The notes: generated by a model not told the origin, from the sequence alone. A DNA stretch of 64,000 nt from Spirochaetaceae bacterium (GCA_051531975.1 JAOPTT010000006.1:32656-96655); one strand, 5' to 3'; positions 13,941-34,591 are shown, numbered from the stretch's first letter. A program made the numbers and translations.

Positions 13941-16001
13941 ATGATGGAAGATGGTAGATTTATACAAATTTTTAAAGATGAGGCACTAGAGCTATTAGGA
14001 CAATTAGAGGACTCTTTATTAGAACTTGAAGCTAGTCCTAAAGACGAGGAGCTTATATCTGCAGTTTTTAGAGTTATGCATACAATAAAAGGTTCGGCTG
14101 GAATGGTTGGCTTAGAAGCTATTTCAGAGTTTACACATGAGGTTGAATCAATATTTGAGGAAATAAGATCTGGTAATATTATTGTCTCAAAAAGTTTTAT
14201 TGATTATACACTAAGATCTAGGGATATAATATTAGAGATGATAAATGATCCAGACTATAGATTTCAAGACTCTGAATCTTTCTTTTCAGGTTTCAAGAAT
14301 TCAATTAACAAAAGAACTGAAATTACTAAAACTGATTTACATCCAAAAACATATAGGATTATATTTAAACCAGATCCTGAAATCTTTTTTACTGGGACAG
14401 ATCCATTAAGAATGATACAAGAAATTCTTGAGCTAGGTGAAGGGGTCGTAATGCCTTTTTACCGTGAGATACCAAAGTTTACTGATTTTATCCCACAGCA
14501 GTGTTATATTTATTGGGAAATTTATCTAACAACTACAGAAAAAATAAATAAAATTCATGATGTTTTTATTTTTTTAAACGAGAAATCTTCTATTACAGTA
14601 GAAGAGTGGAATCATGAAATAGAAGACCCTAATCCTCAGAAACTTGGTCATTTACTTGTTAAAAGTGGACTACTAAAAGATAGTGATATTAATAATGCAC
14701 TCGATAAGCAGCCAATGCTTGGTGAAATTCTTATAAAAAAAGATATTTTAACTAAACATGAGGTGAAAAATGCATTAAAGGCTCAATCATATATAAACGA
14801 AAAGAAAAGTAACAAAGTAGAAACTAAAATATCAAATAGTTTAAGAATAAATTCTAATAAGCTTGATAGTCTTATAGATTTAGTTGGTGAAATTGTAACT
14901 ATTTATGCTCAAATGTTACAAATGAGTCATGAATCAGAGGATTCAAAGCTAGTATCTATAATAGAACGATTTGGTATGTTAACAGAAGATCTAAGGGATA
15001 CTTCCATGAGTATGCGCATGGTACCAATTGGTTCTACATTTTCAAGGTTCAAAAGGTTAGTTAGAGATCTTTCTGGTGAACTTGGGAAAAAAATTGAACT
15101 TGTTACTGAGGGAGCTGAAACAGAACTTGATAAAAATGTGATAGAGCAACTTAATGAGCCTTTAGTACATATAATTAGGAATTGTATAGATCATGGTATA
15201 GAAAGTCCTGAAATCAGAACCAAGAATGGAAAAAGTGAATCAGGTGTAATAAAATTAAGTGCGATTCATTCTGGAACAACAGTTCAAATCGTTATTGAAG
15301 ATAATGGTGGCGGATTAAGTAGAGATAAAATATATAATAAAGCCATTTCTCGAGGATTAATACAAAAAACTGATGAGATATCTAATAAAGATCTTTTTAA
15401 CTTAATTTTTGCACCAGGATTTTCTACTGCTGAAAATATTACAAAGGTTTCAGGTAGAGGTGTTGGACTTGATGCTGTAAAAAAACAGATAGAATTACTT
15501 AAAGGTCATGTATATATAGATAGTAAAGAAGGTGAGTTTACAAAATTTACTCTTGTTTTACCAATAACTTTAGCTATAATCGAAGGCCTTTTAGTTCAGA
15601 TTGAAAAAGAGTCTTTTGTAATTCCACTTGGAGCAGTGGAAGCTTGTGTTGAGTTAATGGATGAAAACAAAGACTTAAAGTCTGGTCGAAATGTAATAAC
15701 TTTTAGAGATAAATTAGTTCCATATATTGATCTAAGAAAATTTTTTAGTATTAAAAGTCAAAGGCAGACAATTGAGCAAATAGTAATTGTTAATTCAAAT
15801 CATCGTCAGATTGGATTACTTGTTGATAGCGTAATAGGAAGTCATCAAACTGTTATCAAATCACTCGGAAATATGTATCGAGGAGTACAAGAGATCTCAG
15901 GAGCAGCGATTTTAGGTAATGGTTCAGTTGCTTTAGTTTTTGATGTGGAGAAACTTGTTAGAGTAGTTGAAAAAACAGAAAGTATTTATGCTATTACATA
16001 A
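13941..16001 (+). CDS. cheA: Chemotaxis histidine kinase CheA
   Basis: Hpt FRVMHTIKGSAG, LDSLIDLVGE, HIIRNCIDHGIE, SGRGVGLD, C-terminal CheW-like domain. Confidence 0.97.
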   Translation: MMEDGRFIQIFKDEALELLGQLEDSLLELEASPKDEELISAVFRVMHTIKGSAGMVGLEAISEFTHEVESIFEEIRSGNIIVSKSFIDYTLRSRDIILEMINDPDYRFQDSESFFSGFKNSINKRTEITKTDLHPKTYRIIFKPDPEIFFTGTDPLRMIQEILELGEGVVMPFYREIPKFTDFIPQQCYIYWEIYLTTTEKINKIHDVFIFLNEKSSITVEEWNHEIEDPNPQKLGHLLVKSGLLKDSDINNALDKQPMLGEILIKKDILTKHEVKNALKAQSYINEKKSNKVETKISNSLRINSNKLDSLIDLVGEIVTIYAQMLQMSHESEDSKLVSIIERFGMLTEDLRDTSMSMRMVPIGSTFSRFKRLVRDLSGELGKKIELVTEGAETELDKNVIEQLNEPLVHIIRNCIDHGIESPEIRTKNGKSESGVIKLSAIHSGTTVQIVIEDNGGGLSRDKIYNKAISRGLIQKTDEISNKDLFNLIFAPGFSTAENITKVSGRGVGLDAVKKQIELLKGHVYIDSKEGEFTKFTLVLPITLAIIEGLLVQIEKESFVIPLGAVEACVELMDENKDLKSGRNVITFRDKLVPYIDLRKFFSIKSQRQTIEQIVIVNSNHRQIGLLVDSVIGSHQTVIKSLGNMYRGVQEISGAAILGNGSVALVFDVEKLVRVVEKTESIYAIT

Positions 16002-16866
16002 AATAGATAATGCAATTTATAGAGGTATTAAAATGTCCTCTGTAGATTTTAGTAAAATTCAGAATTATATTGGTGATACTATAGGAATCAATATTCCTTT
16101 AACAAAAAAATTAATGGTTGAAACAAGATTATTAAAAAGATTAAAAGCTCTAAAAATGACTAATTATGATGAATATACAAAGTACCTATTTAGCAAAGAA
16201 GGTCAAAGTATTGAAATACCTAGGTTTATAGACTGTATTACTACTAATAAAACTGATTTTTTCAGAGAGGAAGATCATTTTGATTTTTTAGTTAAAAATG
16301 TTTATCCAGATCTGATTAAAAAATTTAGATTTAAAGAGATAAATTTATGGTCTGCAGCAGCTTCAACAGGGGTTGAAGCATATACTATTGCAATGATTAC
16401 AGATAATTATCTACTAAATTATTCAGGAATTAATTTTAATATTCTTGCTTCTGATATATCTGAACAGGTTTTAAATATTGGAAAAAGGGCTGTTTATTCT
16501 ATCGAAGATTGTAAGCCCATCACAGGAATATTTAAAAAAAGGTATTGTCTTATTAGTAAAGATAAAGAAAAACCAACTGTAAGGATAAAAAAATATTTGA
16601 GACAAAAAGTTAATTTTAATATTATTAATCTAATTGATGACAACTATGAAATTGAAAAATTATATCATGTTATTTTTCTAAGAAATGTGATGATTTATTT
16701 TAATATGGAGACACAACTTTCAATTCTAAAAAAGTTATATAAATATTTACATCCAGAAGGTTATCTATTTTTAGGGCACTCAGAAAAGGTTCCTGAAAGT
16801 TTATCATTATTTAAAAGGGTTGGACCTTCAATATACGTAAAAAAGGAGAAAACTTTTAATGGATAA
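15988..16866 (+). CDS. cheR: Chemotaxis methyltransferase CheR
   Basis: [42 protein letters not shown]. Start uncertain (15967 TTG, 15988 ATG or 16033 ATG). Confidence 0.93.
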
Positions 16867-17932
16867 TATAATTAAAATAATGATTGTTGATGATTCTGCT
16901 GTTGTCCGTAGTACATTTGCAGAGATAATATCTAATGAGAAGGATATTGATATATTATCTACAGCTGCTGATCCATATATCGCTGCAAAGAAACTACAAG
17001 AAAATATACCAGATGTTATCATCCTTGATATAGAAATGCCAAGAATGGATGGACTCACTTTTCTAAAGAAACTTATGTCTCAATATCCTATCCCAGTAAT
17101 AATTTGTAGCAGTAAAAGTGAAAAAGGATCAACAAATGCCATTAGAGCTTTAGATTATGGCGCTGTTGATATTATTCAGAAACCTCAAGTTGGAACAAAA
17201 GTATTTTTAGAAGAATCTAGAAAGTTAATCTGTGATTCTATTAGAGCTGCGAGTTTAGTAAAATCAAAAAAAGTAGTAGTACCTATTACTGTTACACCAA
17301 AACATAGTGCCGATGTTATAATGTCAAAGCCGATTAATAATAGATCAATCGAAACTACAGAGAAATTAATAGTTGTAGGAGCATCCACAGGTGGTACGGT
17401 GGCATTGAAGGTTTTTTTAGAGCAACTACCACTTGATTCTCCTGGTATTGTTATCGTTCAGCATATGCCTGAAAAATTCACAGAACAGTTTGCTAAAAGA
17501 TTAAATGAAACTTGTACAATTACAGTTAAAGAAGCAAAAAATAATGATTCAATATTAAGGGGTACAGCTCTGATTGCACCTGGTAATAAACATGTTTTAC
17601 TTAAAAGAAGTGGTAGTAGATATTATGTCGAACTTAATAATGGACCATTAGTATCTAGGCACAGGCCTTCGGTTGATGTTCTATTTAGATCAACAGCAAG
17701 ATATGCAGGTAGTAATGCTATAGGAATAATTATGACTGGTATGGGGGATGATGGTGCAGAAGGTCTATTAGAGATGAAAAATTCTGGAGCTTATACTGTA
17801 GCTCAGGATGAAAAAAGTAGTGTTGTTTTTGGAATGCCAAAAGAGGCCATAAAAAGGAATGCTCATTGTAAGATTATGGAACTAGATGCAATTGCTAAAC
17901 ATATAATGTCTAAGTTTAAGGTAATGATATAA
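16859..17932 (+). CDS. cheB: Chemotaxis methylesterase CheB
   Basis: REC plus [28 protein letters not shown]. Confidence 0.97.
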
Positions 17933-18027
17933 TTATATATGAATATTAACTAATTTTTATTTAGCAAATTAAATATAATAATCCTATTTTATAGTTATTA
18001 TTGTAGTCAAAGTATTTACAGAATAAT

Positions 18028-18056
18028 TTGACTTTGCTAATTTTTTGGATTAAATT
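18028..18056 (+). promoter_or_regulatory. Sigma70-type promoter of the second cheY-MCP-like module
   Basis: TTGACT-N17-TAAATT; the -35 forms one arm of the inverted repeat AGTCAAA (18005-11)/TTTGACT (18027-33). Confidence 0.45.
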
Positions 18057-18103
18057 TTAATATAGATATAAATAAATATAAATAAATATAAAAAAGAGGT
18101 CCC

Positions 18104-18469
18104 ATGAAAACAATATTTGCAGTAGATGACTCTGTTACTATAAGATCAACACTTAGCTATACCCTCACTAATGCAGGATTTGATGTACAATTAGCCGAAG
18201 ATGGTGTAATAGCTTTAAAGAAATTAGAGACATTCACAGATAAGATAGATGCTTTCCTCTTTGATGTTAATATGCCCAATATGGATGGCTTAACATTGAT
18301 TAAAAAAGTACGTGAATTACCAAAATATAAGTTTACACCTATATTATTTCTGACTACAGAAACTCAAGCCTCAAAAAAAATAATAGCTCAAGAAGCTGGA
18401 GCAACAGGGTGGATAGTTAAACCTTTTGATGCAGATGTTTTAATTTCTACATTAAAAAGATTTATTTAG
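18104..18469 (+). CDS. cheY: CheY-like response regulator (copy 3, paralog of 1703-2068)
   Basis: MKTIFAVDDSVT, FDVNMPNMDG, KFTPILFLTTE, GWIVKPFD. Confidence 0.92.
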   Translation: MKTIFAVDDSVTIRSTLSYTLTNAGFDVQLAEDGVIALKKLETFTDKIDAFLFDVNMPNMDGLTLIKKVRELPKYKFTPILFLTTETQASKKIIAQEAGATGWIVKPFDADVLISTLKRFI

Positions 18470-21253: not shown

Positions 21254-21712
21254 ATGGATATAGATGAAACATCATTAAAGATTTTAAAAAAGCTAGAAGA
21301 TGGTAGAGCTTCATTTCAGAAAATTGCAGATTCTCTCTCAATTGCTGAAGGAACTGTTCGAAGTAGGGTTACCGGTTTAATTGATGCAGGAATATTAGAA
21401 GTTAGAGGTTTAGTGGATCTAGAAGCATTAAAAGGTTACAACATGGTTCAAGTTGGTATTAAATTATCAACAATGGATCTTATTGGAAAAGGCGAAGAGA
21501 TAAGCAAACTTCCTAGTATATTAAATGTACTTGTTGTTACTGGACGTTTTGATTTAATGGCTACAGTTTTGTTAAGTAATGATTATAAATTAGCTGACTT
21601 CTATATGAAAGAGATGAATACAGTTTCTGATATTCAAGGTGTAGAAACATTTGTTGTATATAAAGAATTTAATACAAAAATACCATGTACGGCAATAAAG
21701 GAGATTATGTGA
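21254..21712 (+). CDS. Lrp/AsnC family transcriptional regulator
   Basis: MDIDETSLKILKKLEDGRASFQKIADSLSIAEGTVRSRV HTH; VVTGRFDL RAM domain. ATG 21254 preferred over 21215. Confidence 0.9.
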   Translation: MDIDETSLKILKKLEDGRASFQKIADSLSIAEGTVRSRVTGLIDAGILEVRGLVDLEALKGYNMVQVGIKLSTMDLIGKGEEISKLPSILNVLVVTGRFDLMATVLLSNDYKLADFYMKEMNTVSDIQGVETFVVYKEFNTKIPCTAIKEIM

Positions 21713-22872
21713 AAACAACAACTTTGTATAATAGACATAAAGAATTGAACGCTACATTTTCTGAGTTTGGTGGATATAATATGCCTTTATGGTATGGATC
21801 AGCAAAAGAGGAACATATCAGTGTTATTAAATCAGTAGGTCTTTTTGATACTAGCCACATGTCTGTATTTACAATTACTGGCCGAGATTCATTAAATTTA
21901 CTTAAAAGAGCATTTTCTAGGGATATTGATGAACTAAAAATTGGGAAGTCTGTTTATGGACTTTTTCAAAATAGTGAATTAGGTGTTATTGATGATACAC
22001 TTATATATCATTTGGAAAATTTAAGTTATATGGTTGTTGTAAATGCAGGGATGTCTGAAATAATTATATCCCATCTACTTTCATTCAAATTTAATGATAT
22101 AAAAATTGATAATTACACTGATAAGTTAGCAAAAATAGACATTCAAGGTCCTAAATCAATAAAAATAATGGAAAAACTCTTTGATTCAACACTGTTTGAT
22201 CTGTTCCCTTATTTTTCATTTAAAGGGAATTTTATTGATAGTGAAATAAAATTTAATAATCAACCTATTTTAATTTCAAGGTCCGGATATACAGGTGAGT
22301 TTGGTTTTGAACTATATGTCGATAGTAAGTGTGCTTCTGATCTATGGGATTCATTATTATTAAATGGTGAAGAATTTGACATTATACCCTGTGGGTTAGC
22401 TGCTAGGGATTCATTAAGGGTTGGTGCAGGTCTACCACTTTCTCACCAGGATATTGGAAATTGGAAGTTTTGTAACAATCCATGGAATTTTGCTGTAACA
22501 AATAGTGTTAAAAGCAGTGATAGTTATACATATGCCTACGTTGGATATGATGTAAGGAAACTACATGCAGAAAAAACTGGAAATGTAATATATCAATCAG
22601 ATAGTATAGGTGAGGTTTTAACATGTATATCAGAAGTATCTTTAACTAGAATTCAAGATACTGTTTTATCTGTAAACTCACCTGATCTTCCACATGACTA
22701 TAAAATAAAGGGTCTTGTTGCTGGATTTATTAAAGTTAATAGACCTCTAGATTATAACACAATAATATTTATTACAGATGGTAAAAGAGAACTTAAAGTA
22801 GAAGTTGTAGAGAGTATTAGACCTCATAGAACTGCTAGGAAATCGATAAAAAATATAAGGAGTTTTAAATGA
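21709..22872 (+). CDS. gcvT: Glycine cleavage T protein (aminomethyltransferase)
   Basis: FGGYNMPLWY, GLFDTSHM, VIDD, QGP, SRSGYTGEFGFEL, CGLAARDSLR. GTG start after AAGGAG, overlapping the Lrp stop. Confidence 0.9.
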   Translation: MKTTTLYNRHKELNATFSEFGGYNMPLWYGSAKEEHISVIKSVGLFDTSHMSVFTITGRDSLNLLKRAFSRDIDELKIGKSVYGLFQNSELGVIDDTLIYHLENLSYMVVVNAGMSEIIISHLLSFKFNDIKIDNYTDKLAKIDIQGPKSIKIMEKLFDSTLFDLFPYFSFKGNFIDSEIKFNNQPILISRSGYTGEFGFELYVDSKCASDLWDSLLLNGEEFDIIPCGLAARDSLRVGAGLPLSHQDIGNWKFCNNPWNFAVTNSVKSSDSYTYAYVGYDVRKLHAEKTGNVIYQSDSIGEVLTCISEVSLTRIQDTVLSVNSPDLPHDYKIKGLVAGFIKVNRPLDYNTIIFITDGKRELKVEVVESIRPHRTARKSIKNIRSFK

Positions 22873-23213
22873 AATTTGCAAAAACACACGAATGGGTAAA
22901 AAAAGATGGAGATATCTTTTTAGTTGGTATATCTGATTTTGCACAAAAACAGTTAGGGGATATTGTATTTGTAGATTTTCCAGAAGTTGGTGATAATATA
23001 GATCAAGATGACTCATTAGGTGAATTAGAGTCATCTAAAGCTGTTTCTGAATTGAATATGCCATTTACAGGAGAAGTAATAGAGTTAAATGAAGAACTTG
23101 AAGACTCTCCAGAACTTATTAACTCCGACCCACATAAAACTTGGATTGTTAAAATTAGAGCTGAAAACCCAGAAGATTTTAATACATTATCTGATAAAGA
23201 AGAAACTCCGTGA
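22869..23213 (+). CDS. gcvH: Glycine cleavage H protein
   Basis: THEW, GISDFAQKQLGDIVFV, ESSKAVSE (lipoyl-Lys), PELINSDP. Confidence 0.95.
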   Translation: MKFAKTHEWVKKDGDIFLVGISDFAQKQLGDIVFVDFPEVGDNIDQDDSLGELESSKAVSELNMPFTGEVIELNEELEDSPELINSDPHKTWIVKIRAENPEDFNTLSDKEETP

Positions 23214-24499
23214 GGTACCTATCCCATACTGCTAATGATATCTCAAAAATGTTAGCAGTAATTGGTAAGGAATCAATATACGATCTGTTTGATCACATAC
23301 CTGATGATGTTAAAATTACTGAGGATTTAAAACTTCCTACAGAATTATCAGAGTGGGAATTAGAGGAACATCTAAATGATTTAGCACAAAAAAATATTAA
23401 TAAAAAATCATATTTAGGTGGAGGAAGTTATAATCACTATATACCAAATATTATCCAATATTTAACTTCAAGGTCAGAGTTTTTAACGTCTTATACACCT
23501 TATCAGCCAGAAATATCCCAAGGTACATTGCAATCTCTTTTTGAATTTCAGACATACGTCTCTAATTATCTTGGAATGGATTATAGTAATGCATCTATGT
23601 ATGACGGTGCGACTAGTTTTGCTGAGGCAGTATTGTTATCAACTAGGGTTACCAAAAGAAAAAAAATTGTTGTTTCGAAGGCTATTAATCCAAAATATAT
23701 TGATGTATTAAAAACATATGTTACTAGTTTAGGTATAGAGATAATTTATTTAGATTATAACAAGCATGGAGAAACAGATCTAACTAATATGCCAGATCTG
23801 TCTGATGTTGCATCAATATCAATACAATCTCCTAACTATTTTGGTGTAATAGAAAAACAAGAGCTTATTAAACCAATTATCAAAACTGAAAAAACACTTT
23901 TTATATCGTTATTTTCTGAAATTTTATCATACGGGCTGTTTAAACCTCCTGGAGAATTTGCAGCAGATATTGCGTGTGGAGAGGGTCAGAGTTTTGGTAT
24001 AAATCAAAGTTTTGGTGGCCCATCCCTTGGGATATTTGCATTTAATAAAAAGTACTTAAGAAATGTTCCAGGAAGACTTGTTGGACAGAGTATTGATATA
24101 AATGAACAACGTAGTTTTTCATTAACATTGGCTACTCGTGAACAGCATATCAGACGAGATAAAGCTACAAGTAATATATGTTCAAATCAAGGTCTTTGTA
24201 CATTATCCGCAATTATCTATATGTCTTTATTAGGTGGTAATGGACTTAATGAGTTGGCAAAAGTAAATTACCAGAATAGTAGTTATTTAAAGAGTGCTTT
24301 AATAGATGCTGGGTATGAAATAATTTTTAGTAGTGAAACATTTAATGAGTTTGTTGTTAAATCTAAAAAAATATTACCAGGTATAAGTCTGGAGAGTACT
24401 TATCCAGAATTAAAGGACTGTTATTTAATAACAGTAACAGAGGTTTTTAATAAAACTGAATTAGATATGTTTATATCAGACTTAGGAGGTAATGTATGA
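23210..24499 (+). CDS. gcvPA: Glycine dehydrogenase subunit 1
   Basis: EFLTSYTPYQPEISQG, NASMYDGAT, TREQHIRRDKATSNICSNQ. Confidence 0.95.
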   Translation: MRYLSHTANDISKMLAVIGKESIYDLFDHIPDDVKITEDLKLPTELSEWELEEHLNDLAQKNINKKSYLGGGSYNHYIPNIIQYLTSRSEFLTSYTPYQPEISQGTLQSLFEFQTYVSNYLGMDYSNASMYDGATSFAEAVLLSTRVTKRKKIVVSKAINPKYIDVLKTYVTSLGIEIIYLDYNKHGETDLTNMPDLSDVASISIQSPNYFGVIEKQELIKPIIKTEKTLFISLFSEILSYGLFKPPGEFAADIACGEGQSFGINQSFGGPSLGIFAFNKKYLRNVPGRLVGQSIDINEQRSFSLTLATREQHIRRDKATSNICSNQGLCTLSAIIYMSLLGGNGLNELAKVNYQNSSYLKSALIDAGYEIIFSSETFNEFVVKSKKILPGISLESTYPELKDCYLITVTEVFNKTELDMFISDLGGNV

Positions 24500-25935
24500 T
24501 CTATGATGAACCTCTATTATGGGAAAAATCAGATGGATTAGGTTTAGGTTTTTCAATGCCAACACCGGTAGAGAATAGTACTTTACCAGATTCAAAATAT
24601 CTCAGAGGAAATATTAATTTACCAGGTTTTAGTGAACCTGAGGTTAGTAGACATTTTACAAGGTTATCTACCTGGAATTATGGGTTAGATACCGATATTT
24701 ACCCTTTAGGATCTTGTACAATGAAATATAATCCTAAAATACACGAGAAACTCGCTTCAATTAGTGGTTTTACAAAAAATCACCCATTACAATCAGATGA
24801 AACTTCCCAGGGTTCCTTAGAGATTTTATATAAAACTGGTGAATATTTAAAAGAAATTACAGGAATGGATGATGTTACTCTTCAACCTGCTGCTGGTGCA
24901 CATGGTGAATTAGTTGCTATGTTAATGTTTAAAAAATATCATGAATCCCGGGGTGAAAATAGAGATACTATATTAATACCTGATTCTGCCCATGGAACCA
25001 ATCCTGCATCCGCTTCTTTATGTGGTTTTAAAGTTAAGGTTATTCCTTCAAATAAGGATGGTATATTAACTCCTAATGCTGTTAAAAATCTTATGGATGA
25101 AACTGTGGCAGGTATTATGATTACAAATCCAAATACTTTAGGTATATTTGAAATTCATATAAAAGAGATAGCAGAAATCATTCATGCTGGCGGTGGTTTA
25201 GTTTATGCCGATGGCGCAAACTTAAACGCTATAATGGGCATTGTAAAAATGGGGGATACAGGGGTTGATGCGATGCATCTTAATCTACATAAAACATTTT
25301 CAACTCCCCATGGAGGAGGAGGTCCTGGAGCAGGTCCTGTTTGTGTAAAAAAACATCTTTCTGAGTATCTTCCTCTACCAAGAGTGATATATAAAAATAA
25401 TAAATATAGTCTAGAATATAATTATAAAAATTCTATAGGAAAGGTTCATGGATTTTATGGTAATTTTAGTGTCATTTTAAAAGCCTATTGTTACATTTTA
25501 TCTATGGGAGCGACTGGTCTTAAAAATACCAGTTTATATGCTGTTTTAAATGCTAATTATATTAGGGCGAGTATAAAAGATTTTTATCATTTACCATATG
25601 AATCAGCTTCAATGCACGAAGTTCTATTTACTGACTTAAAACAAGTTGATTCTGGTGTTAATACTTTGGATATTGCTAAAAGATTAATCGAGAATGGAAT
25701 ACATCCTCCTACTATATATTTTCCATTAGTAGTTAGTGGAGCAATGTTAATGGAACCAACAGAAACAGAATCTTTAACATCATTAGACAATTTTATAAAG
25801 ATATTAATTAATACAGCTTCTGAAGCAAAAACAGATCCAAAAAAATTGCATAATGCTCCAACAAATTGTAAAAGAAATAGAGTTAATGAAACATTAGCAG
25901 CAAGAAATCCAATTTTAAAGGGAGAAGTTCTATAA
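24496..25935 (+). CDS. gcvPB: Glycine dehydrogenase subunit 2
   Basis: YPLGSCTMKYNP, SAHGTNPASA, HLNLHKTFSTPHGGGGPG (PLP-Lys), EPTETES. Confidence 0.96.
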   Translation: MIYDEPLLWEKSDGLGLGFSMPTPVENSTLPDSKYLRGNINLPGFSEPEVSRHFTRLSTWNYGLDTDIYPLGSCTMKYNPKIHEKLASISGFTKNHPLQSDETSQGSLEILYKTGEYLKEITGMDDVTLQPAAGAHGELVAMLMFKKYHESRGENRDTILIPDSAHGTNPASASLCGFKVKVIPSNKDGILTPNAVKNLMDETVAGIMITNPNTLGIFEIHIKEIAEIIHAGGGLVYADGANLNAIMGIVKMGDTGVDAMHLNLHKTFSTPHGGGGPGAGPVCVKKHLSEYLPLPRVIYKNNKYSLEYNYKNSIGKVHGFYGNFSVILKAYCYILSMGATGLKNTSLYAVLNANYIRASIKDFYHLPYESASMHEVLFTDLKQVDSGVNTLDIAKRLIENGIHPPTIYFPLVVSGAMLMEPTETESLTSLDNFIKILINTASEAKTDPKKLHNAPTNCKRNRVNETLAARNPILKGEVL

Positions 25936-26033: not shown

Positions 26034-26741
26034 ATGAATTTAGAAGTTGATGTACATACACATACCACTGCAAGTGGACACGCTTATTCATCTTTAAATG
26101 AAATGGCTGAGGCTGCATCTAAAAAGGATATTAAAATAATGGGTACTACTGATCACGGTCCCAAAATGCCTGGTGGTGCTCATCTATATCATTTTCATAA
26201 TATAAGAGTAATCCCTGAGTTTATTTCAGGTGTTCGTATATTAAAAGGAATAGAAGCAAATATAATAGATTTTAAAGGTGGATTAGATGCTCCTGTTGAA
26301 CTATTAAAAGAGATGGAACTTGTAATCGCAAGTTTCCATGGCCCATGTATTGAACCAGCTGGAATCACAAAGACTACTGATGCGCTATTAAAATTAATGG
26401 AAAATAGATATGTAAATATAATAGGTCATCCAGAGGATAGAAGATTTAAATTTGATCTTGAAAGTGTCGTTTCTAGTTCTAAAACAAATAAAACTCTTTT
26501 AGAAGTTAACAATAGTTCTTTATTACCAACAACTTTTAGAGAAGATAGTAGAAATGGAATTATATCTATATTAGAAGAGTGTGGAAGACAAAGTGTGCAA
26601 GTTGTATTTGGTTCAGATGCACATCATACATCAAGTGTTGGAAGATTTGATATGGTTAAGGCATTGATAAAAGAAATTGGATTCCCTGAATCACTTATAA
26701 TTAATAGATCTAGTTCTGAATTTTTAAAATATATAACATAA
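26034..26741 (+). CDS. PHP-domain phosphoesterase, YcdX-like
   Basis: DVHTHTTASGHAYS, TDHGP, GIEANI, GHP, GSDAH. Confidence 0.9.
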   Translation: MNLEVDVHTHTTASGHAYSSLNEMAEAASKKDIKIMGTTDHGPKMPGGAHLYHFHNIRVIPEFISGVRILKGIEANIIDFKGGLDAPVELLKEMELVIASFHGPCIEPAGITKTTDALLKLMENRYVNIIGHPEDRRFKFDLESVVSSSKTNKTLLEVNNSSLLPTTFREDSRNGIISILEECGRQSVQVVFGSDAHHTSSVGRFDMVKALIKEIGFPESLIINRSSSEFLKYIT

Positions 26742-26754
26742 GGTATAAAAATAA

Positions 26755-26783
26755 GTTGATTAAATATAATATCAACCTATAAT
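26755..26783 (+). promoter_or_regulatory. Putative promoter with an overlapping inverted repeat upstream of the cyclase pair
   Basis: TTGATT-N16-TATAAT; inverted repeat GTTGAT-N10-ATCAAC (26755-26776). Confidence 0.4.
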
Positions 26784-26794
26784 AAAAGAAATTA

Positions 26795-28741
26795 ATGCTA
26801 AAAAGAACTCTACTTGCAATTTTATTAATAACAATCTCTCTTTGTCTCTTTTCAAATGTTGAAAAAGGAGTAATTGATCTTTCGAATTACGATTTTAATA
26901 CCGATGAACCTTTAGACCTTTCAGGAGAGTGGATATTAAAACAGGATAATAGAAATGATATATTTTCTAATGTACCTGGTGGCTGGATAGGTCACAAAGG
27001 TGAAGTAACTTACATAATAAATATAATTAGTAGTGGAGCTAAACGTCTAATTATTGCACCATCTCAAATAAATTCAAAATATAAACTTTTTCATAATGGA
27101 ATACAGATTGCTAGCGATGATCAAAATAGACCAAGATATATTCCAATTGAACTAATAAATGGAATTAACAAATTAGAATTTAATATTACAAATTATACCG
27201 ATGTATTTAGTGGGTTTAGAAATCACCCTTATATTGGGAACTTTAATACTATGATGAGAAAACATGAGAGGAATATTTTAAAAGATACCTTTTTTAGTGG
27301 TGCCTCATTTATTATGTTTATCTTTTTTGTAGTACTTTTTCTACATTATAAAAAAGATAGGTCTATGTTATATTTTGCCTTAATATGTATTAATTTTGCA
27401 GTTAGGAGTTTTGTTACAAATGATAAAGTTATATTTTATTATTTACCTAATTTGTCCTACGATATATGCAATAAACTTGAATACTTAACCATTTATATTC
27501 TTCCTTTATTACTTCTTCTGTTTCTTTATAATTATTTTAAAAAGGCTAAAAAAGATAAGTTATTTTTAATTTTTACAATTATCTCTATTGTATATCCATT
27601 GTCAGCGCTACTATTTACACCAGCACTATATATGAAGTTATCTATCTCTTTTTATATATATATATGTATTTTTTCAGTTTATATAATAATCAAATTAGTC
27701 TTTTATACTATCAATAGATATCGTGACTCTTTAAAGTTATCAGTAAGTCTGTTATGCCTATGTTTTGCAGGAATTTATGATATTAATATTATCTTTAACA
27801 GTTCTTCTGTAACTCTCATTTTACCTGGTTCAATGATTATTTTTATCATGTTTATGTCTTTTATAGTATCAAAAAGAGAGATTGATAATACAAAACAAAT
27901 TGAAAAATTATCATCTGAGACTCTTAAAGTAAATAAATACTTAAGTAAATTTGTTCCAAATCATTTTATTGAAACAGTTGGTATGGGTAATATATTAGAA
28001 ATAAAAAAAGGTGATGGTATGGAGAAGGATATGACAGTTCTTTTTGCTAGTATCAAAAATTTTAAAAAAGACTTAAAGCTATATAATCCAGAAGAGAGTG
28101 TAGAACTACTAAATAGATGCTTTTCAGTTATATCACCAATAATTTCAAGTAATAATGGGTTTATTGATAAATTTATTGATGAAACATTAATGGCTGTATT
28201 CCCCGGAAAACCTGAAGATGCTATCGATGCAATAATACAGATAAACATAGAGTTGAAAATGTATAATAGCTCTAATAGTGAGGATCGACCAATTGAGATA
28301 AGATCTGGAATACATATAGGTAAACAATTTATTGGAATAGTTGGGGATGATAAAAGAGTAGATGCAACAGTAATATCAAAAGTTGTTAATACCGCTAGTC
28401 GTATTAATTCATTTACAAATAAAATTGATAGAAATATTTTAATAAGTGATGATGTATATCAACGTTTATCAAATAAAAATGGATATGAAACTAAGTTTAT
28501 GGGAAAGGTTAAACTAAAAGGAAATAAAAATTTCATCGGAATTCATTGTATATATATTGATGATATGGATGAGGCTGATAATCTTTTTAGTATGACAATG
28601 ACCAGACTAGGTAATAGTAGTTTAGATAAAATAGAGAATGTTTTACTAAATATTAAAAGTATGTACAAAGATCATACGCCTTCTTTATATTACTTAGAAT
28701 TAATTCAAAGAAATAAAACATTGGAGGATATAGAAAAATGA
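26795..28741 (+). CDS. 7TM-DISM receptor class III nucleotide cyclase, C2-like half (lacks metal-binding Asp residues)
   Basis: Signal peptide, GVIDL...LSGEW extracellular domain, about 7 TM, KFVP, VLFASIKNF, DKFIDET, GIHIG, DATVISKVVNTASRI. Confidence 0.88.
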   Translation: MLKRTLLAILLITISLCLFSNVEKGVIDLSNYDFNTDEPLDLSGEWILKQDNRNDIFSNVPGGWIGHKGEVTYIINIISSGAKRLIIAPSQINSKYKLFHNGIQIASDDQNRPRYIPIELINGINKLEFNITNYTDVFSGFRNHPYIGNFNTMMRKHERNILKDTFFSGASFIMFIFFVVLFLHYKKDRSMLYFALICINFAVRSFVTNDKVIFYYLPNLSYDICNKLEYLTIYILPLLLLLFLYNYFKKAKKDKLFLIFTIISIVYPLSALLFTPALYMKLSISFYIYICIFSVYIIIKLVFYTINRYRDSLKLSVSLLCLCFAGIYDINIIFNSSSVTLILPGSMIIFIMFMSFIVSKREIDNTKQIEKLSSETLKVNKYLSKFVPNHFIETVGMGNILEIKKGDGMEKDMTVLFASIKNFKKDLKLYNPEESVELLNRCFSVISPIISSNNGFIDKFIDETLMAVFPGKPEDAIDAIIQINIELKMYNSSNSEDRPIEIRSGIHIGKQFIGIVGDDKRVDATVISKVVNTASRINSFTNKIDRNILISDDVYQRLSNKNGYETKFMGKVKLKGNKNFIGIHCIYIDDMDEADNLFSMTMTRLGNSSLDKIENVLLNIKSMYKDHTPSLYYLELIQRNKTLEDIEK

Positions 28742-30717
28742 TAAAAAAAATCCTCTATATTTTATTACTGTTGTTACTATATTCATGTAATGTTAATAAA
28801 AATATTGTTGAAGTTAATGGGAAATGGGAACTATATAACAACAAATTTATATTATCTGAACCATCTAATACAGTAGAATTACCTGATTCTAAACTCTATT
28901 TCTCTGGATCAAATAAAGAAATAGCAACAAATAAAAATTATGAGTTTGGATCTATAAAACAGAAATTAAATGTTATACCTAATAATAACTATTCACTTTA
29001 TTTTTCCGGAGTACATTCCGCTTCGAAGATATGGATAGATGGTGAACTCTTAGGTGAATTTGGTACTATTGGAAAAACTTTAAATAGTTCTGAACCTGAT
29101 ATTAGACGAGGGTTAATCAATTTTACTCCCCAAAAGAAATCGGTGGATTTAGTAATTGAATTTTCTCATTTCTATTTCAATACTAAATATCTATTTAAAT
29201 GGATTGTTTTAGGTAATACATCAGATATCGTAAGGTTATATATAAAAAGTCAAAGTAAAGATTATATAACCTTTGGTTTATTAATAATTTGCTCATTTTT
29301 GTTTTTATTAATTTATATTATAAACCGCAAAAACTCATACAATTTATTTTTATCTCTTTTTTCTATCTCTTATGGCTTAAGATCTTTTTTAATGAAAAAT
29401 ACAACTCTTTATTACATGATTCCATCACTTAAGTGGGAATATATTTATATGATAACAAAAGCCAGTGAACTATGGGCATTGTCTTTTATATTACTATTTT
29501 TTCGATCTTTGTTTCCTGAAGAACTAGATAATATTGTAACCAAAATTATAGTCTCAGCTACATTGGTTATGTCACTACTAACTTTTATCCCTCTTGAATA
29601 TTTTAATAAACATAATGTTCTGCTAGTTTTTCATATTTTAGTATTAATTTCAGGTGTTTATATTATATCTAGGTTATTAAAAACTGTACAAAAATATCGA
29701 AGTTATGCCGTTCCTGCAATGATTACAGTAATATTTTTCTTTTCAACTATAGTTTTCGACATTTTTGCGAGTAGAATAATGGTAATATTTGATTATTATA
29801 GTGCTCAATTTGTTTTTCTTCTAATTATAACAATGTTTCTAATGATAGGTAAAAACAGATCTGATACAAGTCGAAGTGTGGCTCACAAGCAAAAAATGAA
29901 TTTGTTAACAAGAGAAACTTTCTCAAAGTTTGTTCCAATTGAAATTCTAAGTAGAGTTAACAATAGTCAGTTAATAGATAGACCTCCTGGTGATTTTATT
30001 CTTGAAGCAATAACAATGGTTTACATCGATATCAGAGATTTTACTAAATTATCAGAAGGTTTATCTCCAACAGACAATTTTAAATTGATAAACGATTTTT
30101 ATTCTATTGTAGGAGAACATGTAAACAGTAATCATGGGTATATAGAATCTTATGGTGGGGATGGTGTTAAGGCTATTTTTTCAGATAATCCATTAGATGC
30201 TATTAATACAACACTAAATATTAGTAGAGATGTTGCAAAAAGTTCAGGTATAAAAATTGGTATGTCTATACATTTTGGTAAAGTTGTATTAGGTACAATT
30301 GGTGGGAAAAATAGAATCCAAGCAACAGCTATATCTGAAGTAACAAGAATTTTAGGAGTTATGGATAATTTTAATTCAAAAATGGGTATAGAAATACTTA
30401 TTACTGAAGTTATATATAAAAGTTCAAATATTCATTATCAAAAAACAATATATTTAGGTCCAGTTATATTAAAGGATGAAGAAGAACCGGTTAATCTATA
30501 TCAAGTTATTCCAGATGATTTTCATATTGATCCATTATTTAGAGAATCTTTCTCCGATGCAGTGGATATGATTCAAAAAAAGAGTTATTCAAAAGCTTTA
30601 AGTATCTTTTATTTAGCTCAGCGATATAATCCAACTCATTTACTTACAAAATACTATGTTAAGCAACTGGAAAATTTTGTTAAATTAGATCAGTTAACCT
30701 TTACTCTAAAGCTTTAG
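28738..30717 (+). CDS. 7TM-DISM receptor class III nucleotide cyclase, C1-like half (lacks Lys/Asn/Arg)
   Basis: Lipobox-like LLYSC, NGKWELY extracellular domain, about 7 TM, KFVP, YIDIRDFT, ESYGGDG, SIHFG, QATAISEVTRILGV, C-terminal TPR-like helix pair. Confidence 0.88.
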   Translation: MIKKILYILLLLLLYSCNVNKNIVEVNGKWELYNNKFILSEPSNTVELPDSKLYFSGSNKEIATNKNYEFGSIKQKLNVIPNNNYSLYFSGVHSASKIWIDGELLGEFGTIGKTLNSSEPDIRRGLINFTPQKKSVDLVIEFSHFYFNTKYLFKWIVLGNTSDIVRLYIKSQSKDYITFGLLIICSFLFLLIYIINRKNSYNLFLSLFSISYGLRSFLMKNTTLYYMIPSLKWEYIYMITKASELWALSFILLFFRSLFPEELDNIVTKIIVSATLVMSLLTFIPLEYFNKHNVLLVFHILVLISGVYIISRLLKTVQKYRSYAVPAMITVIFFFSTIVFDIFASRIMVIFDYYSAQFVFLLIITMFLMIGKNRSDTSRSVAHKQKMNLLTRETFSKFVPIEILSRVNNSQLIDRPPGDFILEAITMVYIDIRDFTKLSEGLSPTDNFKLINDFYSIVGEHVNSNHGYIESYGGDGVKAIFSDNPLDAINTTLNISRDVAKSSGIKIGMSIHFGKVVLGTIGGKNRIQATAISEVTRILGVMDNFNSKMGIEILITEVIYKSSNIHYQKTIYLGPVILKDEEEPVNLYQVIPDDFHIDPLFRESFSDAVDMIQKKSYSKALSIFYLAQRYNPTHLLTKYYVKQLENFVKLDQLTFTLKL

Positions 30718-30780: not shown

Positions 30781-31494
30781 ATGTCAGGACATAGTAAATG
30801 GGCAACTATTAAACATAAAAAAGGTGCACTCGATGCAAAACGAGGTAAGATATTTTGTAAAATTATAAAAGAGATTACTGTTGCTGCAAGAATGGGTGGT
30901 GGGGATGCTGAAACAAATCCTAGATTAAGGACTTCTTTGTTAAAAGCAAAAGCTGCAAATATGCCAAAAGATAACATTGCTAGAGCAATTAAAAAGGGTT
31001 GTGGTGAAACTGATGGTGCAATCTTTATGGAACTTGTTTATGAAGGTTATGGTCAAGGTGGAGTTGGTCTTATTATTGAGGCTCTTACAGATAATAAAAA
31101 TAGAACAAGTGCCGATGTTAAATCTATTTTAACAAAAGGTGGAGGTCAAATTGCAACACCAGGAGCTGTTTCTTATCAGTTTAATAGAAAAGGTGTTCTA
31201 ACATACGATTTAGAAGCAACTGATTTTGACGCAATTTTTGAAACAGCACTTGAAGCTGGAGCTGAAGATGTTACAAATGAGGGAGTAATTGAAGTAATTA
31301 CAGAACCTGGAGACTTTGAAAATGTATTAAATGCATTAGAAGAAGCTAACTTCGCTCATCTAGGTGCAGAGATTACAATGGTTCCAGATGCAACTATAGA
31401 ACTCAACGAAGAGAAAACTGAAAAGCTACTATCTCTTATTGATAAGCTAGAAGATCACGAAGATATACAAAATGTATCTTCAAACCTTGCCTAA
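30781..31494 (+). CDS. yebC: YebC/PmpR family protein
   Basis: MSGHSKWATIKHKKG, NMPKDNI, YEGYG, TDNKNRT. Confidence 0.96.
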   Translation: MSGHSKWATIKHKKGALDAKRGKIFCKIIKEITVAARMGGGDAETNPRLRTSLLKAKAANMPKDNIARAIKKGCGETDGAIFMELVYEGYGQGGVGLIIEALTDNKNRTSADVKSILTKGGGQIATPGAVSYQFNRKGVLTYDLEATDFDAIFETALEAGAEDVTNEGVIEVITEPGDFENVLNALEEANFAHLGAEITMVPDATIELNEEKTEKLLSLIDKLEDHEDIQNVSSNLA

Positions 31495-31977
31495 GTGGTA
31501 AGAGTTATAGGTATAGACCCTGGCCTTGCTAATACAGGTTGGGGTATTATAGAAACCGATGGAATTAGATTTAGATATCTAGCCCATGGTACAATTGAAA
31601 CAAAAAGTGAATTAAAATCTACAATTCGACTAAAAGAGATATATAGCCAGTTACAGGAAGTTATAGTAGAGTATAAGCCAACACATTCAGGTGTTGAGAC
31701 TCTATATTTTGCAAAAAATGTTTCATCGGCACTGCCTGTTGCTCAAGCAAGAGGTGTTCAGCTTTTAACCCTGGGTAATAATGGTATTATAACAGGGGAG
31801 TATACTCCTATTCAGATTAAACAAGCAGTTGTTGGTAATGGTCGAGCAACAAAAAAACAGGTTCAGGAAATGGTAAAGTTATTATTAAAACTTAAATCTA
31901 TTCCAAAACCTGATCATGCCGCTGATGCTTTAGCTGCGGCAATATGCCATGTGCATAGTGTGAGGGTAAATGTATAA
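31495..31977 (+). CDS. ruvC: Holliday junction resolvase RuvC
   Basis: IGIDPG, QARGV, EYTP.QIK, DHAADALA. Confidence 0.96.
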   Translation: MVRVIGIDPGLANTGWGIIETDGIRFRYLAHGTIETKSELKSTIRLKEIYSQLQEVIVEYKPTHSGVETLYFAKNVSSALPVAQARGVQLLTLGNNGIITGEYTPIQIKQAVVGNGRATKKQVQEMVKLLLKLKSIPKPDHAADALAAAICHVHSVRVNV

Positions 31978-32551
31978 TAGTTTAACAGGTAAAATTACAG
32001 AAAAAGGTATTAGTCATCTCTGTTTACAAATAGGTGGAGTAGAATGGATTCTTTTAGCCTCTATCAACAGTTTAGATACGTGTAATGTTGGGGAAGACAG
32101 AAGGTTTTTCACATATTTACAACATAAAGAAGACGGCATGACAATGTTTGGTTTTGCTACTAAAGATGAAAGAGTTCTTTTTTTAGATCTAATAAAGGTT
32201 AATGGAGTAGGGGCAAAAGCTGCACAAAAAATATTATCTGGAATAAAACCTGCAGAGTTCATACGTTGTTTAGAAGATGAAGATGTTGATAGGTTAACTA
32301 AAGTCCCAGGTCTTGGTAAAAAAACAGCACAGAAGATAATTTTAGCATTAAAAGGCAAATTGAAATTAGAAGATGATGTTGTAAAAGAATCTACTAGAGA
32401 TAGTGTTGATAAAGAGATTTTAGATTCTCTTGTTGCCATGGGTTTTGATAAAAAGAGAGCAAAAAATGTCTTAGTTGATGTAATTGCAAATGCAGATGGT
32501 TTAGGTGAAGGTGAAATACTTCGTTTAGCTATAATTAAGTTAAGTAGTTAG
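31970..32551 (+). CDS. ruvA: Holliday junction DNA-binding protein RuvA
   Basis: [25 protein letters not shown]hH motifs. Confidence 0.95.
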
Positions 32552-32559
32552 GGGTTATT

Positions 32560-33594
32560 TTGGGTCAGTTTGAAGAAGAAAATATACTATCTGGAGAATC
32601 TCTATTTAATGACGATATAGAACGTCTAGATAACCCTATTAGACCTAAATTATTAGCAGACTTTCAAGGTCAAGAAGATATAAAAGATAATCTAAATATA
32701 TTTATAACAGCTGCCAGAGATAGAGGTGAAGCTTTAGATCATGTATTTCTAAGTGGTCCTCCAGGACTTGGTAAGACAACATTAGCTAATATTATGGCAA
32801 ATGAGTTAGGGGTTGAAGCTAGAGTGACATCAGCTCCTGCTATGGATAAACCAAAAGATTTAGCAGGTTTATTAACAACAATATCAGAAAATAGTGTTTT
32901 TTTTATAGATGAAATTCATAGATTAAAACCAACAGTAGAAGAGATGTTATACATCGCAATGGAAGACTACGAATTAGACTGGATAATAGGTCAAGGTCCA
33001 TCTGCAAGAACTATAAGAATACCAGTCCCACCTTTTACATTGGTTGGGGCAACAACAAAGCCAGGGAAAGTATCTAGTCCACTTTTTACTCGTTTTGGAA
33101 TAAATATAAGAATGAGTTTTTATACCCACGAAGAATTACGGGATATAATTGTTAGAAGTGCAGATATATTAGAGATTCAAATTGATCCAGATGCAGCATT
33201 TGAGTTAGCAAAATGTTCTAGAGGTACACCTAGGGTTGCGAACAGACTACTTCGAAGAATGAGGGACTTTGCTCAGGTTACTGGGGATGGAATAATTAAT
33301 ACAAAAATTGTGGCTGATGGGTTAAAAAGATTAGAAATTGACTCATATGGTCTTGAAAGACACGACAGGGAGATCTTGAATACTATAATTACAAAATATA
33401 ATGGTGGCCCAGTTGGTGCAGAGACTTTAGCAATTAGTGTAGGTGAAGGAATTGACTCTTTAGAAGATTTTTATGAACCATATCTAATACAACAGGGCTT
33501 TATTAAAAGAACTGCAAGGGGTAGAATGGCGACCCCTTTGGCATATAAACACCTAGGAATGGAGTTACATGAAAATCAGCGACTACTCTTTTGA
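32560..33594 (+). CDS. ruvB: Holliday junction helicase RuvB
   Basis: [33 protein letters not shown]...RTARGR. Confidence 0.97.
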
Positions 33595-34591
33595 GTTACC
33601 TAAAGAACAGATAGCACAATATCCTCCAGAAGTTAGAGGAACAGCGAACTTAATGGTTCTTAATAAAAAAAATAACACTATCCAACATAAAAACATGCAA
33701 GATTTAACAGATTATATCGATGATAATACAGTTGTTGTTTTTAATAATTCCAGAGTAAGAAAAGCAAGACTATTTGCAAATACTTTAGATAGTGGTGGAA
33801 AAGTAGAATTTTTCATGTTAACTAAAGTAAAAAAAAATACCTGGGAAGTAATGGTCTCAAAAGCAAAGAAGCAGATTGTTGGACGGGAATATAAATTTGA
33901 AGGTGGAGCAACTGGTACAATCCTAGAAATTATATCTACTAACCACAGAATTGTTGAGTTTGATACTGACATCGATGATGAATATCTAAATAGTTTTGCT
34001 CATATTCCACTACCTCCATATATAAAACGTGAAGATGATAATGCTGACTCGGAAAGATATCAGACTGTATTCTCAAAAGAGATAGGTTCATGTGCTGCTC
34101 CAACTGCATCTCTTCACTTTACTGTGGATATATTAGATAAAATAAAATCAAAAGGTGCGGATATAGCATTTGTGACACTTCATGTAGGTCTTGGAACATT
34201 TGCTCCTGTAAGAACTGAGTATTTAGACGATCATGATATGCATTTTGAAGATTTTTATATCTCTGATGATAGTGCAAAAATAATTGAAGCTGGTATAAAA
34301 ACTGGTAAAAAAATATTAGCTGTTGGTACAACTTCTGTTAGAACATTAGAGTCATCATGGAAAAATGGGGCTTTAGTCAGAGGTACTCAAAGTACTAATT
34401 TATTTATTAAACCTGGCTATGAATTTAAAGTTGTCGATAAAATGTTTACCAATTTTCATACCCCAGAATCAACACTTTTAGTTCTTGTATCAACTTTTGC
34501 AACAAAAGAATTAATTGATAAAGCATATAGAGAAGCTGTAGAACAAAAATATATGTTTTTTAGTTATGGTGATGCGATGTTAATTGAATAA
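33569..34591 (+). CDS. queA: tRNA ribosyltransferase-isomerase QueA
   Basis: [50 protein letters not shown]. Confidence 0.97.

Follow-up and report, generated by a model that had tools for sequence, protein, structure and literature searches.

We examined a 64,000-nt stretch of DNA from a Spirochaetaceae bacterium (the window, in what follows), which is AT-rich (G+C ~27-33%) and belongs to contig C6 of a genome of 5.46 Mb in 29 contigs (G000). A pair of overlapping genes, A and B, spans 26795..30717 on the + strand of the window, and each encodes a receptor carrying a nucleotide cyclase domain of class III from which a different part of the catalytic site is missing. The genes and their junction are:

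26795..28741, + strand: gene A, 648 residues; C2-like subunit, a 7TMR-DISM receptor cyclase lacking both metal-binding Asp residues
28738..30717, + strand: gene B, 659 residues; C1-like subunit, a 7TMR-DISM receptor cyclase with both Asp present and with Lys, Asn and Arg gone
28723..28741, + strand: putative coupling junction, with GGAGG at 28723-28727 and an ATGA overlap at 28738-28741

The junction sequence ends ...GAAAAATGATAAAA, in which the ATG of B (28738-28740) and the TGA stop of A (28739-28741) have TG in common. The GGAGG lies inside the end of gene A, 10 nt 5' of B's ATG. Based on this motif and the ATGA overlap, A and B are probably co-transcribed and translationally coupled.

Both proteins have the same domain order: the signal peptide is followed by a beta-sandwich sensor in the periplasm, a 7TMR-DISM membrane module, a helical linker bearing an FVP motif and, in the cytoplasm, a cyclase domain of class III. 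Pfam matches to 7TMR-DISM_7TM (PF07695; cut-off 29 bits) and to Guanylate_cyc (PF00211; cut-off 21.9 bits) were found on both, the latter with 70.3 bits for A and 22.1 bits for B; in a whole-genome PF00211 search B reached 21.4 bits alone and 26.7 with neighbouring segments in frame. Both also matched solved class III cyclases by phmmer (E 3.6e-16 for A and 1.4e-7 for B), and no NCBIfam model was found for either. From residue 147 on, A and B share 25% identity, and profiles of the A and B families, described below, aligned from residue 76 to the C-terminus with a probability of 100 and 20% identity. The domains are:

26858..27274, + strand: periplasmic sensor of A, residues 22-160; beta-sandwich, AlphaFold2 predicted local distance difference test (pLDDT) 85.9 from a 5-sequence alignment
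27284..27874, + strand: 7TMR-DISM_7TM module of A, residues 164-360; PF07695, 65.3 bits
28025..28534, + strand: cyclase homology domain of A, residues 411-580; by Pfam, phmmer and genome-wide alignment
28795..29253, + strand: periplasmic sensor of B, residues 20-172; predicted mostly beta, model poor (pLDDT 58.9)
29263..29844, + strand: 7TMR-DISM_7TM module of B, residues 176-369; PF07695, 34.3 bits
30004..30537, + strand: cyclase homology domain of B, residues 423-600; by Pfam, phmmer and genome-wide alignment

A class III catalytic site is defined by seven residues: two Asp, a base-specifying pair, an Asn, an Arg and a further Lys (excerpts of PMC6592433). We assigned the alignment columns by phmmer to solved cyclases, by MAFFT alignment of the 29 cyclase domains of the genome, by hmmalign to their profile, and by comparison of the A-family and B-family profiles. 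Six positions, each checked by script, are occupied as follows:

First metal Asp position: A, S419 (codon 28049-51); B, D431 (30028-30)
Base-specifying Lys position: A, K459 (28169-71); B, S471 (30148-50)
Second metal Asp position: A, E463 (28181-83); B, D475 (30160-62)
Base-specifying Thr position: A, T525 (28367-69); B, T530 (30325-27)
Transition-state Asn position: A, N532 (28388-90); B, R537 (30346-48)
Transition-state Arg position: A, R536 (28400-02); B, V541 (30358-60)

This residue pattern, the coordinates and the ATGA overlap had been described in a first-pass annotation of the window, and the script check and alignments bore out every detail. T530, the second base-specifying Thr, is also retained in B, a residue absent from that annotation. 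The two Asp of B are 44 residues apart. In the phmmer alignment of A with OaPAC (5x4t), FASIKNF fell on FFSDIVSF, KFIDETLMAVF on KFIGDCVMAYF and DATVISKVVNTASRI on DYTILGDAVNVAARL; in that of B with Cya2 (2w01), YIDIRDFT fell on LTSDLRGFT, IESYGGDGVKAIF on IDEFMGDGILVLF and ATAISEVTRILGVM on YGVVGAQVNLTYRI. Two loops follow the same division. The phosphate-loop F-T after the first Asp is present in B (DIRDFT), where it is retained in 24/24 B-type sequences, and lost in A (SIKNFK). The KGK loop is retained in A (LKGN/K), with its K-G conserved in 23/23 aligned A-type sequences, and degraded in B (LKDEEE). Neither chain combines both Asp with Asn and Arg, as a complete homodimer-type chain does. 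The canonical positions, the phosphate-loop Thr and the KGK Lys are split between A and B in the reciprocal manner of C1 and C2 domains, in 24/24 clusters per family.

Class IIIb adenylyl cyclases carry a Lys and a Thr as the base-specifying pair, the Thr replacing the Asp of class IIIa, a definition reportedly due to Linder and Schultz in 2003. By this definition, A with its K459 and T525 is presumably of class IIIb. The Lys and Thr of the intact half-site are compatible with ATP, as suggested earlier, and 21/29 cyclase domains of the genome have this K/T pair.

Next, we compared A and B with the other cyclases of their genome. PF00211 matched 29 cyclase domains on 16 contigs, in open frames of 219-1111 residues, a number that, for a 5.46 Mb spirochaete genome, implies a large cyclic AMP (cAMP) signalling network. 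In the aligned domains the six columns, read in the order listed above, are D-K-D-T/D-N-R almost throughout, and both Asp, Asn and Arg are present in 27/29. The exceptions are A and B: only A is without the Asp residues and only B without Asn and Arg. One further domain (C14_160211) lacks only the Lys among the catalytic residues. No other two of the 29 cyclase genes are adjacent; after A and B, the closest two lie >3.6 kb from each other, on opposite strands. Since only two domains are incomplete, and these are both adjacent and reciprocal, the complementary pattern is more than would be expected by chance.

A search of 41 related genomes with B returned orthologues from two same-genus genomes (53% and 51% identical), one of which also has a paralogue at 39% identity. 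With a B-domain profile, B-type domains were found across the order (38 genomes, one family) in 4 genomes, at five loci: one in the window, two in G001, one in G003 and one in G014. Written as the residues at the six positions, the pairs are:

Window (G000): upstream SKETNR, downstream DSDTRV; PHP gene upstream, yebC downstream
G001, first pair: upstream SKETNR, downstream DSDTRY; flanks as in the window
G003: upstream TKETNR, downstream DSDTRA; flanks as in the window
G001, second, paralogous pair: upstream TKETNR, downstream DSDTRK; flanks different
G014, another genus and more distant: upstream NKDTNR, downstream DRDTTQ; flanks different

At all five B-type loci with readable DNA, an Asp-deficient cyclase gene lies upstream with a 4-base overlap, and both frames are open. 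Further searches marked the limits of this distribution. Neither A-type nor B-type domains were found in a genome of the same genus that is 81% complete, and a phylum sample of 401 genomes yielded no further B-type domain, the best foreign match scoring 197.6 bits against 357.8 for B itself. A scan of a genome collection (80 loci) found pairs in two loci only, both in known genomes (G003 and G014), and a metagenome scan with the B-domain profile (80 loci) found no B-type signature and no half-site pair. By its named records the family belongs to spirochaetes: members carry record names from Spirochaetales and Spirochaetaceae metagenome-assembled genomes, and some clusters are named Thiospirochaeta perfilievii and Spirochaeta dissipatitropha.

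To this we added protein clusters from a 5.8-billion-protein database, searched with the A and B cyclase domains. The A domain matched 24 clusters at 53-100% identity, after which identity fell sharply to <=43%; the B domain matched 24 clusters at 52-100%. A-type signatures were SKETNR (18), TKETNR (3), RKETNR (2) and TKDTNR (1), so that 24/24 clusters have K, T, N and R and none has the first Asp. B-type signatures were DSDTR plus a variable residue (22) and DSDAR plus A (2); both Asp, the Ser and the Arg in place of Asn are invariant in 24/24, and the canonical Arg position holds six different residues (A9, K7, S5, V, Y, N). The 27 next-best matches outside the families read DKDTNR (26) or DKDSNR (1). 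For 11 A-type clusters there is a B-type cluster with a longest contig of identical size, and two more were matched through cluster members; we infer that these matched clusters share a contig.

Conservation within each protein peaks in the cyclase domain. Mean pairwise identity was 0.41 in A and 0.41 in B for the periplasmic domain, 0.41 and 0.45 for the 7TM module, and 0.58 and 0.57 for the cyclase domain. With these last two values so close, neither cyclase domain is decaying, and the weakly scoring domain of B is as constrained as that of A. In a tree of 102 cyclase domains built by maximum likelihood (quick search, Shimodaira-Hasegawa-like approximate likelihood ratio support), A-type and B-type domains each formed one clade with a support of 100, both inside the order's 7TMR-DISM cyclase clade. 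The B-type domains group with other domains lacking Asn and Arg (P0014, P0019, P0013 and the downstream gene of G014; support 90), and the upstream gene of G014 falls outside the A-type clade. This topology points to an early, single loss of Asn and Arg and to later losses of the partner's Asp residues, on more than one occasion. Such an order is plausible: in a B without Asn and Arg, the site that would use the Asp residues of A is already dead, which makes those Asp dispensable. Furthermore, the A and B distance matrices of 12 matched pairs correlate (r = 0.80, reached in 0/5000 permutations), with a mean divergence of 0.54 in both.

We consider it probable, on these comparisons, that A and B are the subunits of a receptor adenylyl cyclase that is an obligate heterodimer and has a single active site beside a degenerate pocket. 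In the head-to-tail dimer established for class III cyclases, each site draws its two metal Asp from one subunit and the base pair, Asn and Arg from the other. B would give D431, D475 and an intact phosphate loop, and A would give K459, T525, N532, R536 and the KGK lysine. Because these half-sites complement each other in such an arrangement, the A:B dimer would have one complete site of the ATP (Lys/Thr) type. The second pocket, lined by S419, D462 and E463 of A and by S471, T530, R537 and V541 of B, would be catalytically dead. An A:A dimer would be without metal ligands and a B:B dimer without Lys, Asn and Arg, and neither homodimer would have a complete site. Signals from two diverged periplasmic sensors would then converge on a single site. 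As for its history, B's lineage would first have lost Asn and Arg, after which the partner's Asp would have become dispensable. The first-pass annotation had predicted that neither homodimer would have a complete site and that A:B would have exactly one. The sequence comparisons support this, and the comparative tests set for it did not refute it: orthologues are not unpaired (5/5 B-type loci have the overlapping upstream gene), and residues are not lost at random, since 24/24 A-type and 24/24 B-type clusters are reciprocal.

The putative dead pocket is itself conserved, with E463 in 23/24 A-type clusters and R537 and S471 each in 24/24 B-type clusters. In the G014 pair the upstream gene keeps an Asp at the E463 position and the downstream gene has a Thr at the R537 position. 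More speculatively, this hints that E463 and R537 are a co-varying pair that might lock the heterodimer or bind a regulator. A dead pocket acting as an allosteric site would resemble the forskolin pocket of membrane cyclases and the bicarbonate pocket of soluble cyclase.

That same annotation had also suggested that two different sensor domains could act as a two-ligand gate. Such a gate is conceivable; by profile alignment and Atlas clusters the two domains are not of different kinds. The profiles align from residue 76 and the three nearest ESM Atlas clusters are common to both sensors, so that the A and B sensors are diverged copies (paralogues) of one fold. Weaker leads pointed to GH2-type sugar-binding domains, and the best Foldseek matches of the A sensor model were the N-terminal sugar-binding domain of GH2 glucuronidases (template-modelling score ~0.69, E 1e-6). 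Isolated A and B sensor domains gave no Pfam match to DISMED2 (PF07696) even at E values up to 10; relatives carry this domain.

We noted two further features at the protein ends. The N-terminus of B is lipoprotein-like (…LLLLYSC, window 28738-28788), and Cys17 of its signal peptide is invariant in 24/24 aligned B-type sequences; A-type N-termini have no invariant Cys. Anchoring or processing may differ between the two subunits. A conserved tail of ~55 residues lies 3' of the cyclase domain in both proteins (window 28565-28738 and 30538-30714). The A and B tails align together (…H.PT.YYL.LI..N..LED in A), and relatives have TPR repeats at the same place.

When 1.84 billion representative proteins were scanned in full by HMMER with the B-domain profile, proteins with more than one cyclase domain came up besides the B-types. 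P0012, a hypothetical protein (NCBI) of 1262 residues from a Treponema metagenome-assembled genome, is matched twice each by 7TMR-DISM_7TM and Guanylate_cyc. NKSTNR is the signature of its first cyclase domain and DKDIDT that of the second, which is the split, and the order, of A followed by B. A member of its cluster (P0153, 1269 residues, 99.8% identical) was found on 6 contigs. A hydrophobic stretch lies between the halves of P0012, where B has its signal peptide, and would bring the chain back across the membrane; the layout of P0012 and P0153 is a bacterial counterpart of the transmembrane-cyclase-transmembrane-cyclase arrangement of the animal enzyme. Each half is ~23% identical to A and to B and sits on a long branch in the tree, and for these reasons P0012 may be either a fused A/B-like pair or of separate origin. 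Another protein, P0008 (1265 residues, NKDTNR and DKDTNR), arose by its own duplication and fusion, since its two domains are 68% identical and sisters in the tree. Three longer B matches in a word-indexed database were rejected as fused forms, being unrelated kinase-GAF-cyclase-STAND proteins; the HMMER scan was the sole source of fused forms.

Other arrangements also occur. In a neighbouring genus, G045 (genus g4, L260 3014-7194) has a tandem pair of sister copies that reads DKDAGG and DKDTNR, 86 bases apart and without overlap. At the syntenic locus there is a lone Asn/Arg-degenerate 7TMR-DISM cyclase gene with no adjacent partner in G041 (DKDGKT, L258 5060-7096) and in G006 (DKDSNS, L259 4603-6657). 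These three loci may show the same degeneration at an earlier stage or at an alternative one.

Several further proteins came up beside these. P0003, P0005, P0011 and P0019 are soluble bacterial proteins with 2-3 cyclase domains, TPR repeats between them and a PAS or receiver domain in front; one or two of the domains are degenerate (e.g. DKDTHQ / DKNTSR / DKDTNR), and these proteins may be further single-chain pseudo-heterodimers. P0044, transcript-derived from the amoebozoan Mastigella eilhardi, is among the best matches to the B profile and reads DTDSTQ then EKDTNR, with the metal half first. On an uncultured bacterium contig (L071 3415-7108), a complete cyclase (DKDTNR, 619 residues) is followed 1.2 kb downstream by a 196-residue cyclase open reading frame, DSDTNM.

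Not all of the evidence favours an obligate A:B heterodimer, and the following points weigh against it. The Guanylate_cyc match of B covers the first half of the domain only and is barely above the cut-off, so the Asn and Arg columns of B depend on alignment with A, with Cya2 and with the remaining domains of the genome. The correlation of distances argues for co-inheritance, not binding, as shared descent alone would give it. For the other 11/24 A-type clusters, on contigs <=34 kb, no B cluster was matched. Degeneracy in the wider family is not always paired, as the partnerless genes of G041 and G006 illustrate. E463 and the neighbouring D462 of A could still bind metal weakly, the invariant R537 of B might stand in for the missing Arg if B:B had a non-canonical site, and A could pair with one of the 27 complete cyclases of the genome, of which four are close 7TMR-DISM relatives.

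If A, B or both paired with some of those 27 cyclases, or were non-catalytic receptors, A:B would not be a functional enzyme. The four close paralogues with complete sites would supply such partners, and mixed combinations do exist in the wider family, in which the degenerate DKDAGG gene of genus g4 adjoins a complete DKDTNR gene and degenerate orphans occur. We nevertheless regard this as unlikely. The two families are always reciprocal (24/24 and 24/24), coupled at 5/5 loci and co-diverging at equal rates, and a partner with a complete site leaves unexplained why every member has lost either both Asp, in A, or Asn and Arg, in B. That B is instead a non-canonical homodimeric cyclase, with R537 and S471 replacing Arg and Lys and possibly with another substrate, and A an accessory sensor, seems to us quite improbable. 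It would account for R537 and S471 being invariant in 24/24 rather than drifting, and B does retain both Asp, the phosphate loop and T530; yet the canonical Arg position varies freely over six residues, the KGK loop is degraded, and the invariant K, T, N, R and K-G of A, a protein without metal ligands of its own, would have no explanation. Finally, A and B could be decaying duplicates without cyclase function whose complementarity is an accident of drift, as the marginal Pfam cyclase score of B might suggest. This is barely conceivable given that the frames are open at 5/5 loci, that conservation in each protein is highest in the cyclase domain, that the retained catalytic residues are invariant over 24 clusters each at ~50% overall identity, and that the only 2/29 incomplete domains of the genome are neighbours.

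Taking the heterodimeric receptor cyclase as the preferred reading, a broader scheme can be sketched, which we offer tentatively as a possibility we would not bet on. In this scheme the animal adenylyl cyclase design was re-invented independently among spirochaete 7TMR-DISM cyclases and its stages are extant: a tandem with one degenerate partner (G045), reciprocal two-gene A/B pairs, and the single-chain Treponema protein. The dead pocket would serve as a heterodimer lock or allosteric ligand site, and the sensors as a two-input coincidence detector.

The surroundings of the pair are as follows. Upstream of A is one promoter-like element:

26756..26783, + strand: promoter-like TTGATT-16-TATAAT, 12 nt upstream of A's ATG, 10/12 matches

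The region is AT-rich, and sites of this kind occur in it no more often than expected (37 observed, 39.4 expected), which makes this one weak evidence for a promoter. No RNA dataset is listed with the locus; one DNA run contains it and may be its source, and a metatranscriptome from the same sample contains next to none of its words. A gene for a PHP-domain phosphoesterase (window 26034-26741) ends 53 bases 5' of gene A; its position is retained at two syntenic loci of the same genus and not at the paralogous or distant pairs. Neighbours assigned by Pfam, all sharing the strand of A and B, are cheA-cheR-cheB with a cheY-like receiver (13941-18469), the glycine cleavage genes gcvT, gcvH and two gcvP subunits (21685-25935) and, immediately 3' of B, yebC-ruvC-ruvA-ruvB-queA (30781-34591).

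A close analogy in design is with the mammalian membrane adenylyl cyclases AC1-9, in which one cyclase domain carries the metal Asp and the other the base pair, Asn and Arg (excerpts of PMC6592433, PMC9552081 and PMC8815786). On the same excerpts, AC1-9 (TM1-C1-TM2-C2, TM being a transmembrane module) resemble A/B in having one active and one degenerate interface site and a membrane module before each cyclase domain. Unlike them, A and B are two separate, translationally coupled genes with a 7TMR-DISM module and periplasmic sensor rather than a six-transmembrane bundle, their base pair is Lys/Thr rather than Lys/Asp, and the C2-like unit bearing Asn and Arg comes first. Judging by its position in the tree, inside the spirochaete 7TMR-DISM cyclase clade, the A/B pair is of independent origin.

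The inverted order of the halves has its own parallel. In the alveolate P4-ATPase guanylyl cyclases (T. gondii ATPaseP-GC, Plasmodium GC-alpha and GC-beta), the first domain holds the nucleotide and transition-state residues and the second the two Asp (excerpts of PMC6592433), which is the order of A then B and of the fused Treponema protein. These enzymes differ from A/B in being eukaryotic, fused, GTP-specific and ATPase-linked. Soluble guanylyl cyclase alpha/beta has one catalytic and one degenerate site. It is an obligate heterodimer of two polypeptides (PMC6592433, in part); unlike A/B, it is eukaryotic, cytosolic and GTP-specific, with a haem-NO sensor. In fungi, NeoR must pair with RGC1 or RGC2, two different sensor subunits, for regulated cyclase activity (excerpts of PMC8815786). 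RGC1 and RGC2 differ from A/B in keeping all catalytic residues, and according to those excerpts their obligate pairing is thought to be due to regions outside the cyclase core; they are also eukaryotic and light-sensing.

Proof of principle for complementation comes from Mycobacterium tuberculosis Rv1625c, whose D300A and R376A mutants are each inactive and on co-expression restore one site and activity (Beltz et al. 2016, eLife, in part). These are point mutants of a natural homodimer, unlike the A/B split, which is natural, conserved and extends over at least 7 positions. An Rv1625c heterodimer with two different receptor anchors was active with ligand regulation gone (same part of Beltz et al. 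2016). In view of that chimera, the ligand input of the A and B sensors, whether separate ligands or a shared site, cannot be assumed. Canonical bacterial 7TMR-DISM adenylyl cyclases, of the homodimeric type, share domain order and clade with A/B, and relatives of the family and paralogues in the genome read DKDTNR; they have complete sites and stand alone, whereas A and B are each incomplete and paired. GcyB and GcyC of Rhodospirillum centenum were rejected as a multi-subunit parallel, the paper calling them non-catalytic subunits.

Bacterial class III cyclases are described as monomers that homodimerise, and the pseudo-heterodimer is traced to an early eukaryote in which duplication and fusion produced it (Schultz 2022 and Beltz 2016, both in part and from one specialist group). 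The full-text literature searched, which leaves most subscription journals outside, gave no description of a natural two-gene half-site bacterial class III cyclase; a 2004 actinobacterial survey with three occurrences of 'heterodimer' (PMC2447327, in part) may bear on novelty. If the proposal is correct, a design with one active site and one regulatory pocket evolved independently in bacteria, with fused single-chain relatives alongside, and offers a genetically separable model in which the halves, the sensors and the degenerate pocket can be changed one at a time. Such a model would help to address how two membrane receptor modules control one catalytic site, an open question for the mammalian enzymes. 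It also calls for caution in annotation, as both genes would receive the label "adenylate/guanylate cyclase" and neither product is expected to work alone. Altogether, A and B most likely produce cAMP only when paired with each other, in a design familiar from animal cyclases, whereas the bacterial enzymes are described as dimers of identical subunits.

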